Source: Curvularia clavata
Taxonomy: Eukaryota
Reading direction: 5' to 3'
Assembly (NCBI GenBank): GCA_023920165.1
Contig: CP089276.1
Coordinates: forward strand, 2,480,001-2,544,000
Length of the DNA stretch: 64,000 nucleotides
Under the pieces are notes generated by a model. The model saw only the letters and a list, made by a program, of their open reading frames with translations, did no database searches and was not told the DNA's origin. Of this stretch, positions 10,771 to 19,943 are shown in pieces (the stretch's first letter is position 1; each line of letters opens with the position of its first letter). Position numbers and translations under genes: made by a program.

Positions 10771-11960
10771 AAAGAGAGCACTGCAGACACGAACTGCAAC
10801 CGATCCTTGTAGATGTCGAATTGCTTAGAGGCGATACCCCCAAGATGATCAAATGTCCATAGCCGTATCAGAGATCTACAGGGGGTAAAGCCAAGAACAA
10901 AGTAGTAACTGTCTTAGACAGCGAGCACCTCCTTCACGTATCGGCTAAGGTCGAGTCACGCCTTAGACGCTTTATTAGCTAATAGGTTGCTCTTAAGCTC
11001 TCTAGGTATAAGGATATGTGACCATTACCACTTCGAGTTCACGCTAGCGTTCAGATCGTTTACAGAGTTAATATCTAGCTTGCAATTAGCAGTAAAGCCT
11101 TATAAAGGCTAATACGGCTATGCTAGCGTTTACTAGCGTATTCTAGGTACCGACTGATACCTATCTACAAGGTTCAACAGCCGCTCTATAAGTAGAACAA
11201 ACTAGCTCAAAATATTATTTTCCTTCGCCGCTTAAGGCTTGCTCTGCTAACTACTCTATCTAGAAAAGTAGACTATCTCCCTTCTTACACTTATCTCATA
11301 TAGCTCGTATCACTAGTCTTAGATCTGGCAAATCTCTAAAGAATGCTTTAAAGAAATCAGGTATGTCAACGTATAATTCTCATAACTCCTTCTTTAGCAC
11401 ATTATTTGCGTATTTGCAGTGCTCGGTCGAGTTCACGAAACTGCTGTTTGGTGGAAGGATAAGGTGGGGTAGGGTAGTGTTAAGAGTATGATCTCGAGTG
11501 GAAGTAATATAAGACTTCTGGTGTCAAGACCTTCTTTAGATTGATTTTCGCGGATAAAGCAATAGTGTATTATAAATAAAAGTTCTGCAGTAACTATTAT
11601 ATTATAGGTACTATACTCGTAACTTAAGTTAAATATATCGAGCTATAAGGGTCTAATACCTATTCCTATATACTTATAGTGCTCGTAACCCTTGGTTAGA
11701 GGAGTCTAAGTAACCCTCGATAGCTTATATACGAGGAGCATTCCTCTATAGCTTATGTACGAGGAGCCTGCTAAGACCCTTCTTTAGATATGCGCTACTA
11801 AGGAGATTATATAATGCGTGCCCCCGCGTTATATATAGCTAGGTCGACTAGTCGTTAATGCTTCTTAACTTAACTGCTGTGCCTCTTCCTCCTAGGTTTG
11901 TAATACTATTCTTCTCTTTTCTAAGCTTATTCTTAAGCTTTTCTTTATATCTAGCTAACA

Positions 11961-12475
11961 ATATCTGCCTCTAGGTCTAAAGAATATCTTCGTCTTATTT
12001 TTAAAATTCGTCGTAATAGTCTCCCCGCGCCTATCCCCTGCGATTATTATTTTGCGAATAACTATTAGTGCGTCGCGATGCCCAAAGTCGACGGTAAGCG
12101 TTTGAAGTGCTCTGAGTGCACTCGTCTAGGTCATCTATATGTTAATATATTGTAGGTGTCGTTAGACAAGACTTATAAAGAGTATTAAAAGAAAGTAGAT
12201 AAAGATAAGTAATTATTGGTTTAAGTAATTTCGCGGTTAATGCGAAATAAGAAAATTCTAAAGTAGGCTAAGGAACGTGCTATGAAGAAGACTATATATT
12301 TAGCGAATTCCTTACGCGAAGGTAGTGATAACATAGACGCGTAGGAGTCCCTAAACTGCCCTGCGGCCAATATATTAGTAGGGTTCTCACCTATTATATA
12401 GAGTACTTTGGATTCTCTAGACGCCCTAGCGTTATTTTTAAATTCTAGCAATATTTCTGTTTTTTCTTTCTAATA
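11961..12475 (+). pseudogene. Antisense accessory gene of A1: Zn2Cys6-like cluster plus coiled coil
   Basis: Frame from ATA(11961, presumed RIPped ATG): SASRSKEYLRLIFKIRRNSLPAPIPCDYYFANNY*CVAMPKVDGKRLKCSECTRLGHLYV..., followed by a charged helical stretch. Confidence 0.65.
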
Positions 12476-13179
12476 GTAAGTTCTTTTTATAGTTTTATAG
12501 TATTTTTTAATAATTACTAAGATTATCCTCTAGTTTCTATATATTTTCGCTATTATCGTATTCTAACTATTTAACTAGGTACTTGGTTTTGTTGCGCGTA
12601 GTCTAGTGTACTAGAATTTTCTTAACTTCGAATTCGTCTTCTTCTTCTAGTTCGAAATAGAATGTTTTTTATAATAGTATTTTAGGGTCTGCAGATTTTA
12701 GTAACTTAACGTGAAACTTTAGGTGTATTTTCACATCTGGTGGTAGATCGAGTGTATAGATAACTAGTCTATTCTAGGCTTTAATTAAAAATAGCTTAAC
12801 GTAGATATTATCTAATCTCTTATTTAGTTATGTCGTACGAAGGTTCTTTATAAGTAGATATACTTTATCTCTCTTCTTTAGCTAAAGTACTATTTTTCTT
12901 TTCTAGTTAATATATAAGATGCTTTAGCGTTAAGCCTTTTTAAATAATTTTTATAGTTCTTCGTATATTTTTTTTATTTCTTTAGCTATAGCGATGGCTA
13001 CTTCTATTTTCAAACTTGGTAATATTCTAGTAAAGAGATTCGGGTGTTTTCTATAGTTCGTATAAAATAGTGTTTATTTCGTTAATTCTGATAGCTTGTT
13101 ATTATATGCTAGTTATGCTATAGGTAGTAGTTATATCTAATTATTTTGTTAGTAGTTGCTATTAGACTGGTAAATGGGT

Positions 13180-13420
13180 ATGGGGCACCCGGCTCGGGTT
13201 GGGGTAGGGCTTGGGGCTATAGAGACTCGGGCTGGGGTAGGGCTAGGGCTGCTAAGAGTCGGGCTGGGGTAGGGCTGGGGCTGCTAAGAGTCGGGCTGGG
13301 GTAGGGCTGGGGCTGCTAAGAGTCGGGCTGGGGCAGGGCTGGGTTGCTTGGCACTTAGGCTAGGGTAGGGCTAGGTTACTAAAGAGTTGGGTAGAGGTAG
13401 GGCTGGGTATAGCCTGCCCA
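13180..13420 (+). repeat. Left subterminal repeats of the hAT (GGGCTGGGGTAGGGCTGGGGCTGCTAAGAGTC-type units)
   Basis: Directly visible tandem G-rich units; related units in both orientations at 19320-19590. Confidence 0.9.
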
Positions 13421-13536
13421 GCTAGGTTATGAATAACTTTAGGCTAGAAAAGATTCGAATTTATTACAGTTTATTATTACAGTAGCTTTAAAAAAAACTT
13501 TAAGATAAAACCAATAGGATTTATTACAGTTGACTA

Positions 13537-16134
13537 TTACGGTAGCGCGCAGGGCGGACACGCTTTCATAGAGAAAGTGGTAACTTGTCCTCTACCTCAT
13601 CCACTTCCTCTAGAGATTCTTCTATATCCTAACTCTAATACTAACTCCCATACTCCTCTATATCTGCTAGAAGCTTAAATAAATTACTAATATTATTAGA
13701 AAGTTAAGTAGCTTCCTCTATAGGCTCGTCTAAGTCTCTATTAAGACTCTCCATCTTATTAGAATTTATAAATTTAAGAATTATAAGTTATCGAATCTTT
13801 TTAGTAGAAAGCTAATGTCGACGATCACTAATAACTTCCTTAGTAATACTAAAGACTCTCTCTACACCTACTTGTGCAATTGGTATAGCTAGAATATCTT
13901 TTGCAACTTAGATAAGGTGGGGGTACGTAATCTTACTTACTTTCTACTACTCTAAGATATCGATATATTTCTATAGATTAATACTAGGGCTGTTTAGATA
14001 TAGCTCCTTTTTTTAATAGATTGGCCCTCTACTCTCCTCAATTTCCTAGCTTGAAGAATCTTGGCTTAAAAGAGAAATCTAGCTTAATTATAATCGAAGT
14101 AAAATAGGCCTTCGAAACTATTCTATACTTAATACTCTCTAAGGAAATAAGCTTAGTATTAACTATATAATTTCTTAATTATTATATTAAGCTAGATAAT
14201 TAAGAAACTACTGCTGGTAAATATACTTATCTTAAAACTCCTATATCTCATCCTATATCTTTTATTAGTATCTATCTATAATAAATATCTATAATAATAT
14301 CTTGTAGGCTATAAGCTTTTACATTAGATTAAAAATCGTCGTACAGTTGAATAAGAAGCTACACTCTTTATTAGTTTTCGAGTAGTATTTACTCAACTTT
14401 GCCCTCTCTTTCGCCGCCGCAGCTCTCACTACTTATGGCTAGTTGCTATTCTCTAAGTCTTTTCCTAAATCAACCTCTATCTAATTAAGAAAATTAAAAA
14501 GCTAATTATACATAAGCTAGATATATAGTATTTAAAGTTTTCGACTCTAACTTAGAGACATTATTATAGTCTTAAAATAGCTAAGCATTTTAGTAACTAT
14601 CTCAAGATGCGACTATTCTTATGCAGATAGTCGTAGTCTCTTAAGATCCTAAGAATTAATATTAGTATTATTGTCGGCCTCTAAGAGGTTTTTAGTATAG
14701 ATAGGAACTCTTAACGCGATCTCATCTTTAAGCCATTCATCGATATATTGCCGAAACTTAACTGCGCGCTTATATATATTATATGTTGAGTTCTATCGTA
14801 TTCTAACATTACGGATAACACTAAGGCGTTTTTTTAGTAGTAGATCCTGTTGTGTTGCGAGAAACCGTTCGTATCGCTGAGGAGATGAGTTAACTATAAT
14901 GCAGATTGCTCTAATCTATATTGTAGTTAGTATGTGATAAATAACTATAATAAAAAATTCTTCCCTTACGAAATGAATTAGAGACTGAGATGTTGGTATT
15001 TACTTTATTAATCTATTATCTCTACAAATCTTATATATTATCTAACTTGGTAGAAGCTAATAGTTTTAAGTACTAGATAATATTCTAGATAATAAGATTG
15101 ATAATATAGGCTAAGTAGGGAATAGTGTTTTTACTTAGACTCTAGCTTATACTAAGTTATTATAGATCTTGCTAAAGAGACTGCGTAAGAGTGCTATTAT
15201 TGCTGGCATTATCGCAAGTAATGGATAGCAATTTTTTTTAGAATTTACTTCTAGAAAGAAGTTTTAGAACTTTATCTGCTATTAAAGCTCTAGTATATCT
15301 CCTACGGATTGGTATAAAATCTAAAAGCTTTTCTTTAAGTTGCTATTAAATATTAATATAGTAACCTTTGATTATAAAGAAACTAAGATAGTTACTTAAA
15401 GTCTAACTATCTAATATAAGTAATATTTTTATTCCTTGGCTAAGATTATTAAGAAGCTTAGCTGAAGCCTTCTCAAATTATAACTTAAACGCTAGCTTAA
15501 ATTTATAACGGCTAATAATCATAGTATTAGGCTAGAGAAACTAGAGAAATCGTTAAAATAATGGCCGCTCAAGTGTTCGGAAGCTCTAGTAGTTATTAAC
15601 TACTACTCTTACTAGTTCTTGTTTGTATATCTTAGTTAAGTAGGCTAGTATTACGCGAGGATTAATATTTATTAGTAGTAGGATACTTTAGTAGAGTGAG
15701 TTCGATAGCTCGTTGTATATAGACGAAGAGATAAGCTAGTAAGTCTAGGTTTAATAATATCTATAAAGATGCTTTATACTAATATTTCTAGCTAATAGGT
15801 GCGCGAGTATATAACTATAGTTCAAGCAGAAGATATATAAACAGCTAGTTAGGACCTCTACAGCCTCTCTAAAGTTTGCCTAGATTTAGCTCGTACGATA
15901 AGAAGAGCCCCAGTATAGAACTGGCTTCGAAGGATCTCGGGCCTATAGTATTTTATTCCACTACTTTTTCTAGTTTAAAATAATTGCTTTATTTTCTTCA
16001 TTACTATTATTTTTAAATACTAAATACTAGATAAGTGTAAGTATGACTTTAAGACTACCTTTATCTCAATATAGAGCATTTATCTTAAAATGCGCAAGGA
16101 TATCTAGCAATTCTATAGGAGGCTCAGCCATCAT
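13537..16134 (-). pseudogene. hAT transposase, RIP-inactivated
   Basis: KILLILDS*T (first Asp motif), SITCDNASNN, IPYLAYIINL (CxxH after de-RIP), VRIR*NSTY, and dimerisation domain **KVSKITYPHLI*VAKDILAIPIAQVGVERVFS...DRRH*L. Intron at ~14917-14960. Confidence 0.92.
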
Positions 16135-16329
16135 GAAGATTATACCTATAATAAATAATTATAATAAATTAAAGTTACTAGATAGACAAATATTATCTAT
16201 AGAAAACTAGATATGGTAGGAAGTTCTAAGTCCTCTAGCTTCTAGCATAGCTAAGATTGTCTAAAACACTAGTGTTATTTAATATATATCTAAAGTAAGT
16301 TTTATATAAGAGAAAGTTTAGATCAACAC

Positions 16330-17625
16330 AGAGGTTATACTATAATTATTAGCTAGAATAAACCCTAGTATAATATTCTAAACCCTAACTACTAGAGTAT
16401 TGTTAGAGATCTGCTTAAATAGCCAGCACTACTCAGACTTCTCTTCTTTAGCCTTTTCATCTTAATCCTCAGCCTCCTCTATCTCAGTACTATTAGCCCC
16501 TTCTAGAGCTAAAAAGCTATCGTTACTACTATAGCCATCCTTATCCTCGTCTATAATCTTATTCTTATTATTAACCTCTTCTTTACACTTATTACTATTA
16601 TAGCCCTCAATATATAGCTTATTATCCTTAAAACGCGTATCTAGATCAAACTAGTCAAGAATAGAAGTAGGCTCTTCTTGTCTATACTAGTTAGTCTTTA
16701 AATATAATAATAAACTATAATAAACTTACTATTAGAAACTATCTATAGTAAGTTCTTTTTCTTTAGAAGAAAGGTTTTCGTAAAACTTGAGCTACTTATC
16801 TCGTGCTTGCTCACTCTCAAAGATATTGTTGTTTAGCTTAGCTAATCCTTAAAGATATTCTTTGCGTATAAGTAAATCAACAACCCCCTTTTAACTATAG
16901 AGACGAGCAGAAACGCGTAACCCCTTAGTAGAGGTATTAGACAGAGCGTCGCTAGAGGTAGTCTAGAGAATAAGCTAATACTATCTTTTATTGATCTTAT
17001 TCTAGATTTTAGACCATTTCGCGTATATAGCTTGGAGAGCAAACGCTATCTAATTAGCTAATAACTATTAGTAGATATCTATAATAAAAGACTATAATAA
17101 CTTACTACTTCGCTTTTCTTTAAAGCGCTTAGATTTATACTCTTTAAAATAGCTCTTTATAATCCTATCCTTCTTATCCTCTCTGGCGGTCTTATACTAT
17201 TCTTTCTCTTTAAATAACTTAAGAAATTTCGCCCGAGCAGCGCGGTTAGCATCTTTGGCGCGTTGGAGAGCGGCTTCTTCCTTAGTACGTGACGCGGCGA
17301 GATCTCTCTATGCAATAGCTCGAGCTATATTACTAAGCTGACCTTGATATTAGACTTGTAGACTAGTTGGACGACCCTTTTAGGAACCTCTAGATCCACG
17401 TTACGCAATAATAAAATTAATCTTATCTTACTTATTTTCAAAGCCCTACTAACGTTAGTATTTACTATAATAATAGACTAGAATTATTACTTTAGTAAGA
17501 TCTATCTACTTCTACTTAGTAAAGTTCTTAGATATTTAGGCAACGCGTAGAGGTGCTAGACCCTCAGATACGTCGCCATCAGTCTCTGTCGTAGACTCGC
17601 GCTTAATTTCTGGCGTACGCGGCAT
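16330..17625 (-). pseudogene. Second hAT cargo gene, unknown; coiled-coil-like middle and acidic tail; 3' end approximate
   Basis: ATG 17625 MPRTPEIKRESTTETDGDVSEG, then ...RDLAASRTKEEAALQRAKDANRAARAKFLKLF... GTA...TAG introns near 17450-17490, 17055-17105 and 16682-16729. Confidence 0.6.
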
Positions 17626-18541
17626 TATTAACTATAATAAAGTACTAATATAACGTCTAGTATAGTGAGAGTAGGGAGAAAAGGGATAGTTACTAAGAGA
17701 AAGTAGGAAGTTTGGTGATAGTCTACCTATTAAAGTAATTAGAGGTCCGTGCGCTCTAGATTTCGCGCTAGCATTAGGCTAGCGAACAACATCTTTCATA
17801 CAGCTAATATCTTAGATAATAAAAATTAGAGCGCTTTAATTTTAGTCTTATTTAAAAGCCCTAGAGTAGCTCTATCTAACGAGCTAGTTATTATAGTATT
17901 TAATCACTACTTTATTAAGTTATAGCAATTTCTTGCTAACTATCTCGCAGACCCTTAGTAAAACTCTAGGTAATCCATGCACTCACCTTCACCTTCACCT
18001 TCATCTACTCATATATCCCCAAAATTCTTAACTACTCTATAGCTAAGTATTTATCCACTAATCCTCTCAATCCAAATCTAACTTTCCTAGCCTAACACTA
18101 AATTTCTCAACTCAACCCTACTAGTTATTACAGAAATTTATCACGTACTATATTAGCAGTAGACAAGGTAGGGGGGCTAGACGATAAGTTGTTTGAGGAG
18201 ATGGCAGAACAGTTAAATATGCTCCTGTCGCCTAAAAGACAGGTATCTTAGCCGCTGTTACCTCGCGAATTAGAAGCTCTTAAAGACGAATTTAAGGTTT
18301 TAGGAGCTTAGATAACTAGCAATTCTACTTTTTCTACTAAAAGTGGCTAACTAAATCTATAAGTTTATCACAGTAATTTATCATAGAAAATGGCTAATAA
18401 ATACTAGGACTACTATTTATAATTATCCCTTCCCGCCCCATATCTCAACTAGTGGCTATCTTATATCTTTTACATACGTTTATCACAGTAATTTATTACA
18501 AGTAATAGCTAACTAATAGTAGGACTGGCACTATATTCTAT

Positions 18542-19118
18542 AGTGTAGGTGGCAAAACCGCTCATAAGCAGCCAGTCAATTATAGGCCGCCCACGCCTAA
18601 GCCTAACAATAAGAATCAAGAGTTGGAAAGCAGCAAGGAAGACGAGTCCGGCCCTCCTACACCACCCGGTGCTCAACCATCTACGTCTGGCGCCTCTAAG
18701 AGGCGCAGGTTTAAGTCTAGCAATAAATTTATCACAGTTATTTATTATAGCAAGCGACTAATAATTACTAGCTATTACACTAAAAGAGATTAAAAGATTC
18801 TAAAAATCTACTAATCTATTTATTCCAAAAACTCAATTTATAAAACTTATTAGGGAGATTATAGGAGACGTATATCCGCAACACCCTCTACGTATCTAAA
18901 GAGAGACATTAGAAGGTCTTTAAGAGACTGCTAAGTATTTCTTGGTTAAATTTCTTAAAGATATATTATATTATTATAGATATTAATCACAGCTACTAAT
19001 AGATCTAGACTATAACATAAATGCTATCTATACTAAGAGAGTTACTATTCAGAAGAAGGATAGGGATCTTGTCAAGCACTATCTTAACAGACTTGGTATA
19101 GATAGTATTAAGTACTGA
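18542..19118 (+). pseudogene. Histone H3-like gene (tail motif plus histone fold) carried by the hAT; further 5' exons likely from ~17977
   Basis: Spliced translation (introns 18723-18771, 18961-19008): SVGGKTAHKQ...KRRRFKSST ITLKEIKRF*KSTNLFIPKTQFIKLIREIIGDVYPQHPLRI*RETLEGL*ETAKYFLVKFLKD YNINAIYTKRVTIQKKDRDLVK. Colinear with H3 [20 protein letters not shown]...AIHAKRVTI. Confidence 0.9.
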
Positions 19119-19319
19119 GGGCTTTTATAATAGAGTATCAAGTACTAATAGCTTTTATAATTGAGGGATAGCCATAATTAAGAACTAGCTATATACTAGA
19201 AATTAAATAAAAGTTTTATAAGTTCTTAATTTTTAATTTACTACTATAATAATTATGCGTAATAAGTCTTTAATATATACAGAGTATATATATATCTAAT
19301 AACTAAGATCTAGCATAAC

Positions 19320-19590
19320 CTAGTACTAAGCAACCTAGCCCTACCCTAGCCCGCTTATTAAGCAACCCAGCCCTGCCCCTACCCAACTCTTGACTAACCC
19401 AGCCCTGCCCCTACCCAACTTAAATGCCAAGAGTTGGGTAGGAGCAGGGCTAGGTTACCTAATAAGCGGGCTAGGGTAGGGCTGGGTTAGCCAAGAGTTG
19501 GGTAGGGGCAGGGCTGGGTTGCTTAGTCATCTGACCCAGCCCTACCCCTACCCAACTCTTAGCAGCCCTGCCCCAGCCCTGCCCCAGCCC
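19320..19590 (-). repeat. Right subterminal repeats of the hAT
   Basis: CCCAGCCCTGCCCCTACCCAAC units and their reverse complement, same unit family as the left end. Confidence 0.9.
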
Positions 19591-19943
19591 ATTTACCAGT
19601 CTAGTTGCTATACATTCTAAGGTATGTTTTCATTATGCGATTTATTCTTTCTGTTTGTCTGTTGGTTTCTGGGTGGTAAGCTGTAGATAATTTTCTTTTA
19701 GTGCCTATTTCTACTATAAGTGTGGTCTAGAAATTTAATGTGAAAAGCTTATCTCGATTGCTAATGATTGACCTTGGTATTCCGTAATATCTGATGATTT
19801 TGTCGTAGATAACGTGCGTAAGTTGTACTATAGTATAATCTTTTTGGAATAGTATGTATTCGGCGTATTTCGTAAATCTGTCGATAACAACTAGTATTGT
19901 GTTGTAAACTGTGTCGGTGACGAGGTCTATTGATAGTAGTAGT

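Follow-up and report, generated by a model that had tools for sequence, protein, structure and literature searches.

The window analysed here is a stretch of 64,000 nucleotides of fungal DNA from Curvularia clavata (assembly GCA_023920165.1, contig CP089276.1, positions 2,480,001 to 2,544,000 of the forward strand), with AT-rich blocks that resemble the product of repeat-induced point mutation (RIP). It contains a complete, RIP-mutated hAT transposon at 13163..19603 (6441 bp, GC content about 0.30-0.39), which carries the gene of a hAT transposase, a central open reading frame (ORF), described as cargo, and the gene of a histone H3-like protein (H3L). Within this element, one pair of short tandem words recurs near both ends, in front of the genes, in the introns and once in coding sequence.

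The limits of the element are set by terminal inverted repeats (TIRs), a target-site duplication (TSD) and an empty site. The TIRs, TAGACTGGTAAATGGG, lie at 13163-13178 and 19588-19603 and match at 16 of 16 bases. They are flanked by the 8-bp TSD GTTGCTAT, with its left copy at 13155..13162 and its right copy at 19604..19611. In contigs of two public sequencing runs (X1 and X2) the flanking repeat is free of the element: the joint 13152->19602 omits 6449 bases (the element plus 8), with 10 letters ambiguous. The earlier note on this DNA had placed the limits at 13455-19265, well inside the true ones. The 8-bp TSD, the short TIR and a C-terminal dimerisation domain in the transposase are all those of a hAT element. 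The transposon sits within another RIPped, high-copy repeat (11000-13162, and 19612 to about 20100), whose summed contig depth is several-fold above that of the element and which shows many joints resembling the empty site.

The transposase gene (13521..16134, minus strand) was traced by tblastn and has two introns; its best homologue is P0007 of Pyrenophora tritici-repentis (E 1e-87), and it matches Pfam Dimer_Tnp_hAT PF05699 (E 4.3e-11; score 42.9 bits, cut-off 21.4). The central ORF (16400..17625, minus strand, three introns, 3' limit approximate) was located by tblastn with the gene model of an intact relative, L007, and is homologous to P0019-P0022. The H3L gene lies on the plus strand; its part homologous to P0006, a protein of Exserohilum turcica, spans 18533..19118 with two introns, is 57% identical to that protein and matches Pfam Histone (E 4.5e-8). 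All three genes are packed with RIP-type TAA and TAG stops, and all lie between the TIRs, as in the Pyrenophora-type layout. The element is a member of a family already described in the literature, the Pyrenophora-type hAT/central-ORF/H3L elements.

The motif unit has 9 bases, TTATCACAG, and is paired at a period of 13 bp. The spacer is always 4 nt long; a length of three or four had been claimed before. RIP turns TTATCACAG into TTATTATAG, the product seen in the window, because both of its Cs precede an A. The single motif TTATYAYAG has 28 matches window-wide, 23 of them within 13455-19265 (3.96 per kb); four others fall in three other RIPped stretches (16 kb) and one in 35 kb of GC-normal DNA. 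The strict pair pattern matches 5 times against an expectation of 0.01. When RIP degeneracy is allowed for, with a 4-nt spacer and up to 1 mismatch in each half, the pair occurs 11 times, every time inside the element, and is absent from 16,159 bp of neighbouring RIPped DNA and from the GC-normal remainder of the window (37 kb). Dinucleotide shuffles of the element contain a mean of 0.022 pairs and at most 2, and none of 500 reaches 11. The earlier note had proposed a comparison of density with neighbouring RIPped DNA as a check, and in that DNA the pair is absent. In a crude scan, the motif core was found in 0 of 14 intron-like candidates from 37 kb of host-like window DNA.

The element holds 17 motif-pair positions. 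All 12 that had been listed before exist (13461, 13521, 14932, 16146, 16702, 17079, 18125, 18365, 18480, 18729, 18971 and 19244); the list was incomplete, and we add 14276-14297, 15503-15524 (coding), 16340-16361, 17465-17486 and 17632-17653. Three pairs face inward from the two ends and are inverted between them. On the plus strand, the pair at 13461..13482 lies about 40 nt 3' of the transposase stop (orthologues in L007 and L036), and that at 13521..13542 is antisense to the final transposase codons and the stop, an overlap also found in L007, L003 and L036. On the minus strand, the pair at 19244..19265 lies about 125 nt 3' of the H3L stop and has orthologues in L007, L003 and L036. These sites had been described as inward-pointing and near both ends: the orientation holds, but their distance from the ends is about 300-360 bp, and the transposase stop codon falls within one of them.

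Seven introns of 45-54 nt were placed in the window from homologous proteins. In the transposase gene, both from P0007 and on the minus strand, intron 1 (T1, 14916..14969, 54 nt, pair at 14932-14953) coincides with a frame change at the P0007 junction LRK|IRA, and intron 2 (T2, 14253..14300, 48 nt, pair at 14276-14297) with a 16-residue gap relative to that protein. The central-ORF introns, also on the minus strand, were placed by tblastn with the L007 model and by annotated homologues that run unbroken across the junctions: C1 (17446..17490, 45 nt, degenerate pair at 17465-17486), C2 (17058..17105, 48 nt, pair at 17079-17100) and C3 (16682..16729, 48 nt, pair at 16702-16723), whose junction is contiguous in P0019-P0021. 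In H3L, P0006 defines Hd (18723..18771, plus strand, 49 nt, pair at 18729-18750), with its donor GTAAGT RIPped to ATAAAT, and He (18961..19008, plus strand, 48 nt, pair at 18971-18992). The RIPped donors ATAAAT and ATATAT derive from GTAAGT and GTATGT. A pair with at most 1 mismatch per half is present in six of the seven introns; that of C1 was missed at this threshold because its first half has 2 mismatches. The rule that the intronic pair follows the sense strand just after the donor describes most introns but fails for transposase intron 1, where the pair abuts the branch point TACTAAC.

The remaining pairs lie close to the genes. One on the minus strand at 16146..16167, reported before as just upstream of the transposase ATG (16134), lies 12 nt from it and has orthologues in L007, L036 and L039. 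Another, at 17632..17653 (minus strand), with a degenerate first half, precedes the central-ORF ATG (17625) by 6 nt. A sense pair 3' of the central ORF (16340..16361, minus strand) has the spacer CTAA, from CCAA, and its orthologues in L003, L035 and L020 have CCAA. Three plus-strand pairs lie upstream of H3L or of its H3-homologous coding region: a (18125..18146), whose second half is TTATCACGT, b (18365..18386) and c (18480..18501). The earlier note took five H3L sites to be intronic; Hd and He are introns, but sites a to c lie upstream of the H3-homologous part and are unverified as such, and their counterparts in L007 have no donor. Site b may be a leader intron or a promoter repeat. Four DNA runs compared with the window showed RIP-type differences, and at site c a G stands at 18472 and 18474 in other genomic copies, which gives a donor GTACGT (among the 40 listed of 1919 differing places). 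Upstream of H3L, L007 (960-1600, minus strand) has a unit of about 200 bp three times in tandem. At the end of each unit stands a pair and then TCACTACA(A/G)C(A/G)AGCG; a splice donor is lacking in all three, and window pairs a, b and c are comparably spaced. The last position, at 15503..15524 (plus strand), is a degenerate pair antisense to the transposase gene and within its coding sequence, at the peptide ..TMIISRYKF.

Relatives free of RIP were found by scanning metagenome contigs for the exact un-RIPped pair, which gave at least 121 stretches, of which 117 loci were kept. A metagenome scan seeded with the P. tritici-repentis transposase gave 185 pattern matches, and none was confirmed. 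Among the matches listed, six loci (eight with duplicates) are intact relatives with a GC content of 0.42-0.47. L007 (with L006) is a full element whose transposase is 71-78% identical to the P. tritici-repentis protein, and the contig of L003 is exactly one element, from TIR to TIR. L036 is 99.9% identical to L046 over 5992 bp from the TIR on, with different flanks, which points to a recently mobile element. The others are L039, L035 and L020. The TIRs of L003, L007 and L036 are related to that of the window; L003 and L036 share the gene order and strands of the window, and L007 has their mirror image. The L007 transposase is intact except for an in-frame TAG at L007:3878-3880, where its relatives have Trp (LDAW), so that this copy may be inactive. 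Exact copies of TTATCACAG number 11 in L007, 10 in L003 and 12 in L036, against shuffle means of 0.06-0.08. As these intact relatives carry TTATCACAG at the matching positions, the motif is not a RIP artefact; it had been proposed that an artefact should disappear in un-RIPped copies, and the result is the opposite.

At least five lineages, with a protein identity of only about 35-60% between them, have the three-gene layout and the positions of the sites in common. This supports the suggestion that the cargo genes have long been co-adapted with the element. Almost every orthologous position is occupied in every lineage. With a limit of 2 mismatches per half and 3 in total, a pair is present in 24 of the 31 introns of the six relatives: 6 of 7 in L007, 5 of 7 in L003, 5 of 6 in L036, 4 of 5 in L039, 3 of 3 in L035 and 1 of 3 in L020. 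The seven introns without a qualifying pair are three H3L introns He and four with a degenerate yet recognisable one (T1 of L003, C2 of L039, C1 and C2 of L020). Pairs lie 2-75 nt before the ATGs of the transposase and the central ORF and, in the relatives, 45-250 nt upstream of H3L. Inward-facing subterminal pairs, inverted between the ends, are found in L007, L003 and L036 as in the window, and the subterminal region of L036 holds an array of six motif copies with a 13-bp period.

We curated 48 pairs, or 96 half-sites, from 57 rows of the six loci; of the nine rows left out, four are sites embedded in coding sequence and five are overlapping registers, four of these in the L036 array and one in L039. 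The half-site consensus is T-T(A)-A-T-C-A-C-A(G)-G, in which positions 1 and 3-7 are nearly invariant. Between orthologous sites, pairwise identity is 1032/1188 (0.87) at the 18 motif positions and 153/264 (0.58) in the 4-nt spacer, a contrast that is inflated because the sites were chosen by their likeness to the motif.

Two sites fall on coding sequence. In all lineages the transposase stop codon lies inside the antisense pair, although the C-termini differ: before the stop they read RYCD, RYCDNQL or KIL, and RYRDN in P. tritici-repentis. The antisense pair embedded in the coding sequence reads TTATAACGG-CTAG-TTATCACAG in L007. Its four invariant residues use identical codons (GTG, ATA, CGT, TAT) in the four un-RIPped lineages, 4 of 4, while elsewhere in the same alignment identical codons are found in 9 of 45 invariant columns other than M and W. 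Such codon fixation indicates a constraint at the nucleotide level, on a strand other than the mRNA sense strand.

The introns themselves have a history. Hd occurs in L007, L003, the window and the distant, GC-rich L008; L036, with an H3L tail that comes close to canonical H3, lacks it. He is present everywhere, and its pair occurs only in the window lineage (none in L007, L003, L036 or L008). Over time, then, introns have acquired and lost pairs, and entire introns have appeared and disappeared. L008 (3300-5460, also L026 and L044; GC content 0.57) is a divergent central-ORF/H3L gene pair with the same intron positions and decayed motifs; no transposase was detected within 16 kb of it, and the locus could be a copy that is non-autonomous or has been domesticated.

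The analysis thus shows that the motif exists, where it is placed and that it is enriched and conserved, and the pair is probably a functional recognition site and not a product of mutation. Our leading proposal, which we put forward tentatively and as somewhat short of probable, is that TTATCACAG-N4-TTATCACAG is a conserved cis recognition site acting at the DNA level, putatively bound by a protein that the element encodes. The prime candidate is the transposase, through a putative N-terminal BED-like CxxC...HxxxH zinc finger. Such binding would resemble that of other hAT transposases, whose BED domains bind short subterminal repeats in tandem. The site would be placed wherever coding constraint permits: in subterminal regions, in leaders, in nearly all introns and once in coding sequence, where synonymous codons would be fixed to accommodate it. 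The introns, at 45-54 nt, hardly exceed a donor, a pair, a branch point and an acceptor, and could serve as carriers of the site. With the leaders occupied, the three genes would all be expressed according to how much of the binding protein is present; occupancy of the body and the ends would contribute to assembling or regulating the transposition complex.

Several observations speak for the DNA level. The pair occurs in both orientations; its subterminal copies are inverted, L036 has its array, and short repeats near both ends, inverted between them, are the classic hAT subterminal layout. Its distance from the donor varies, with the T1 pair at the branch point, and the overlap with the stop codon is kept despite divergent transposase C-termini. 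The strongest point is the codon-fixed antisense pair in the transposase coding sequence. As to the binder, C104, C107, H121 and H125 are invariant at the transposase N-terminus. The best PDB sequence match of the N-terminal profile is the BED finger of ZBED2, a weak one (E 0.17), and with a model of this region (pLDDT 67) the top fold matches include the Hermes transposase, its BED tandem on DNA and ZBED2, all weak (E 0.16-1.6); Foldseek gave no match at E <= 0.001.

Other observations weigh against this proposal, beginning with the ends. Inside each TIR, G-rich arrays fill about 230-270 bp and are inverted end to end: the left one, of units of about 32 bp, at 13179..13410 (plus strand), is inverted relative to the right one at 19316..19587 (minus strand), which has internal inversions. 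Comparable arrays occur in L007 (13-270 and 5990-6085), L003 (30-190) and L036 (150-430). They are G-rich on the strand that reads inward, and the units of the relatives, GGGTTGGGG, GGGTTAGGG and GGGTCGGGG, look like telomere repeats and able to fold into G-quadruplexes. Contigs of the sequencing runs contain short deletion derivatives with the joints 13276->19534, 13279->19544, 13180->19490 and 13247->19534. These resemble miniature inverted-repeat transposable elements and consist of the TIR and the G-rich arrays, linked via 5-25 foreign letters, without the motif pair. They were found in runs under three organism labels, with an identical 18-letter filler in X1, X2 and X4. As derivatives without the pair occur under three labels, the pair may not be required for mobilisation; and as the G-rich arrays are the part retained, these may be the real end-binding sequence in its stead.

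The same side of the balance holds further points. No Pfam zf-BED match was found in the transposase. The family sample is biased towards lineages that keep the motif, since the relatives were collected through one exact pair. In L007 all 12 of the 12 internal non-coding pairs are sense to the local gene, which a symmetric DNA-binding model does not predict; that introns avoid the GT-containing complement would be an ad hoc explanation only. Finally, a gene outside the family has the pair: at L019:6860-8360 (also L073), beside a Gypsy element, lies a DUF3716 gene without similarity to the three element genes. Its single intron begins with GTAAG and a perfect motif pair, and a second, sense pair lies in its 3' untranslated region (UTR), about 260 nt past the stop. 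Among the matches listed for the 117 loci, L019/L073 is the only instance of a donor-adjacent pair in a gene outside the family.

The sense bias and the DUF3716 gene speak for a signal at the RNA level. The pair would then be an intronic and leader element of the pre-mRNA, read by an RNA-binding protein of the host or of the element, and would control splicing, retention or export; the two terminal genes have antisense copies at their 3' ends, which would be incidental or would pair with the signal. The 12 sense sites of L007, the pair in 24 of 31 introns of six intact relatives, and its start 4-6 nt past the GT in most introns fit this, as do the donor-adjacent intron pair and sense 3' UTR pair of L019. 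Such a signal leaves the inverted subterminal copies, the six-copy array and the constrained antisense coding site without a role, and it does not explain a T1 pair at the branch point and away from the donor. Extended pairing between sense and antisense RNA was rejected, as their spacers are not complementary. We regard an RNA-level signal as unlikely, though worth keeping in mind. A host transcription factor, of GATA type or other, could instead use the pairs as a shared promoter-proximal site and intronic enhancer that co-regulates the three genes. NIT2/AreA-type factors prefer two closely placed GATA cores, the complement of the motif contains TGATAA, a pair lies 2-75 nt upstream of each ATG in most lineages, and the DUF3716 gene, outside the family, has the pair too. 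The earlier note had named GATA-factor sites as one option, but conservation is not centred on HGATAR: C7 (1.92 bits) and A8 (1.29 bits) lie outside it and match the core in conservation, and in 12 of the 96 half-sites an A at position 2 destroys the core. Moreover, the core is missing from all 14 host intron-like candidates, no pair occurs in 37 kb of host-like DNA, and a host factor leaves the inverted subterminal arrays unexplained. A plain GATA site is unlikely, and regulation by a host factor of any kind seems to us quite improbable.

Common ancestry could also account for likeness among introns, if all were copies of one self-propagating short intron, similar by descent and without function, in the manner of introners. 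Segments 17055-17103 and 18726-18774 are 78% identical over 49 nt, 18348-18407 and 18712-18771 are 78% identical over 60 nt, Hd is found in L007, L003, L008 and the window but not in L036, and the He pair occurs in the window lineage only. Against it, the pair is kept at orthologous positions despite widely diverged synonymous sites, while spacers and the rest of the introns diverge, and it also occurs without splice signals, in subterminal regions, leaders, a 3' UTR and coding sequence. Introners exist as many near-identical copies in host genes, and the 37 kb of host-like window DNA contain no pair. In the available text of PMC4457414, introner-like elements of Dothideomycetes quickly become indistinguishable from regular introns of 50-55 bp; here the introns are no longer than regular ones, at 45-54 nt, and the opposite of decay is seen, with the pair retained at 35-60% protein identity. 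The likeness to that system is that the introns are mutually similar and in a dothideomycete; the difference, as far as that text goes, is that here they are confined to the genes of one transposon, of regular length and conserved, and that the shared part is found outside introns too. Ancestry without function is thus highly unlikely, while a component of intron propagation stays alive; judging from the conservation, what is selected is the pair itself. As for chance or a low-complexity artefact driven by RIP, TTATTATAG is a plausible word in AT-rich DNA, but the shuffles, the pair-free RIPped neighbourhood and the un-RIPped form in intact relatives have already refuted this, and we give it practically no weight.

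The proposal of an element-encoded DNA-binding protein has a bolder extension, which we consider unlikely: the introns would be the transposon's own vehicles for the motif, minimal introns gained or re-tooled for one element-encoded protein. This protein would read the same word at the DNA ends, at the promoter or leader of each of the three genes and beside each splice site, and transcription and splicing of the three genes would be coupled to transposase occupancy. Such introns would form a transposon-specific, self-recognised class, of which the gain of the He pair and the presence or absence of Hd would be snapshots.

Two described elements are close to that of the window. The P. tritici-repentis hAT 'transduplication' element with H3L has a size of about 5.6 kb and little RIP according to the main text of its description (Manning et al. 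2013, PMC3538342), whereas the window copy is 6.4 kb long and heavily RIPped; the window transposase matches P. tritici-repentis proteins at 1e-87, and that of L007 is 71-78% identical to the protein of that species. In that main text 'subterminal' does not occur, 'binding site' occurs once in an unrelated sense, and 'introns' once, in a figure legend. The Capnodiales hAT element with a captured histone H3 (Dhillon et al. 2019, PMC6710886) is likewise a hAT with an 8-bp TSD, an H3-like cargo and RIPped AT-rich blocks, in the text available. It differs in its size of about 9.5 kb and in its H3-like copies, which have no introns and were read there as capture of a retrocopy; the word 'motif' does not occur in the same text.

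Among hAT elements in general, the Ac subterminal repeat is AAACGG. The short tandem motif, its inversion between the ends and a transposase with a putative BED-like finger make the present element resemble Ac and Hermes. It is unlike them in that the pairs stand 260-440 bp from the ends, behind the G-rich arrays, that most copies are internal and that motif-less deletion derivatives exist. In Hermes, multiple BED domains bind the left end of the transposon, as the accessible part of PMC10368747 has it. A literature search with the letters of the motif gave only unrelated papers among the 15 matches listed of 580. As far as our searches reach, the element is of a known kind and its motif architecture is undescribed.

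The metagenome scan also returned many matches that proved unrelated and were set aside: 13-bp arrays in contigs of low or high GC content, the recurrent L022-type locus and pogo-like coding sequences (L062, L084, L086, L101). Arrays of TTATCACAG plus 4 nt, in 3-6 copies at the 13-bp period, are found in L002, L045, L048, L055/L104, L115, L010/L080 and L009, contigs that are unrelated and of very diverse GC content; these arrays may be iteron-like. One identical locus (L022, L025, L027 and others) repeats in about ten contigs.

The protein of the central ORF was considered as a binder too. No Pfam family was found in it when the RIPped copy and the intact exons were both scanned, and its AlphaFold model (mean pLDDT 55.5) consists largely of long helices and disorder. 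Central-ORF proteins of P. teres, P. seminiperda, Alternaria panax and the metagenome copies share an invariant RG.GGS(R/Q)(K/R)GRP (alignment columns 53-63), within which GSRKGRP looks like an AT-hook. It is followed by long predicted helices and an acidic tail that ends in repeated DFEGFSD.

The cis-requirements of eukaryotic DNA transposons are usually sought at their ends only. Here, in widely diverged lineages, the same word marks the ends, the leaders of three genes, almost every intron and one coding site. If a protein of the element binds it, the transposon would have wired its genes and captured cargo into one recognition system with unusual completeness, and its introns would be retained for the binding sites that they carry. 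Should the word act in RNA, it would amount to a splicing code private to a transposon. Under either reading, H3L and the central ORF belong to the element as integrated components and not as passive passengers, in a family that is present in cereal-pathogen relatives and linked there to genome plasticity.

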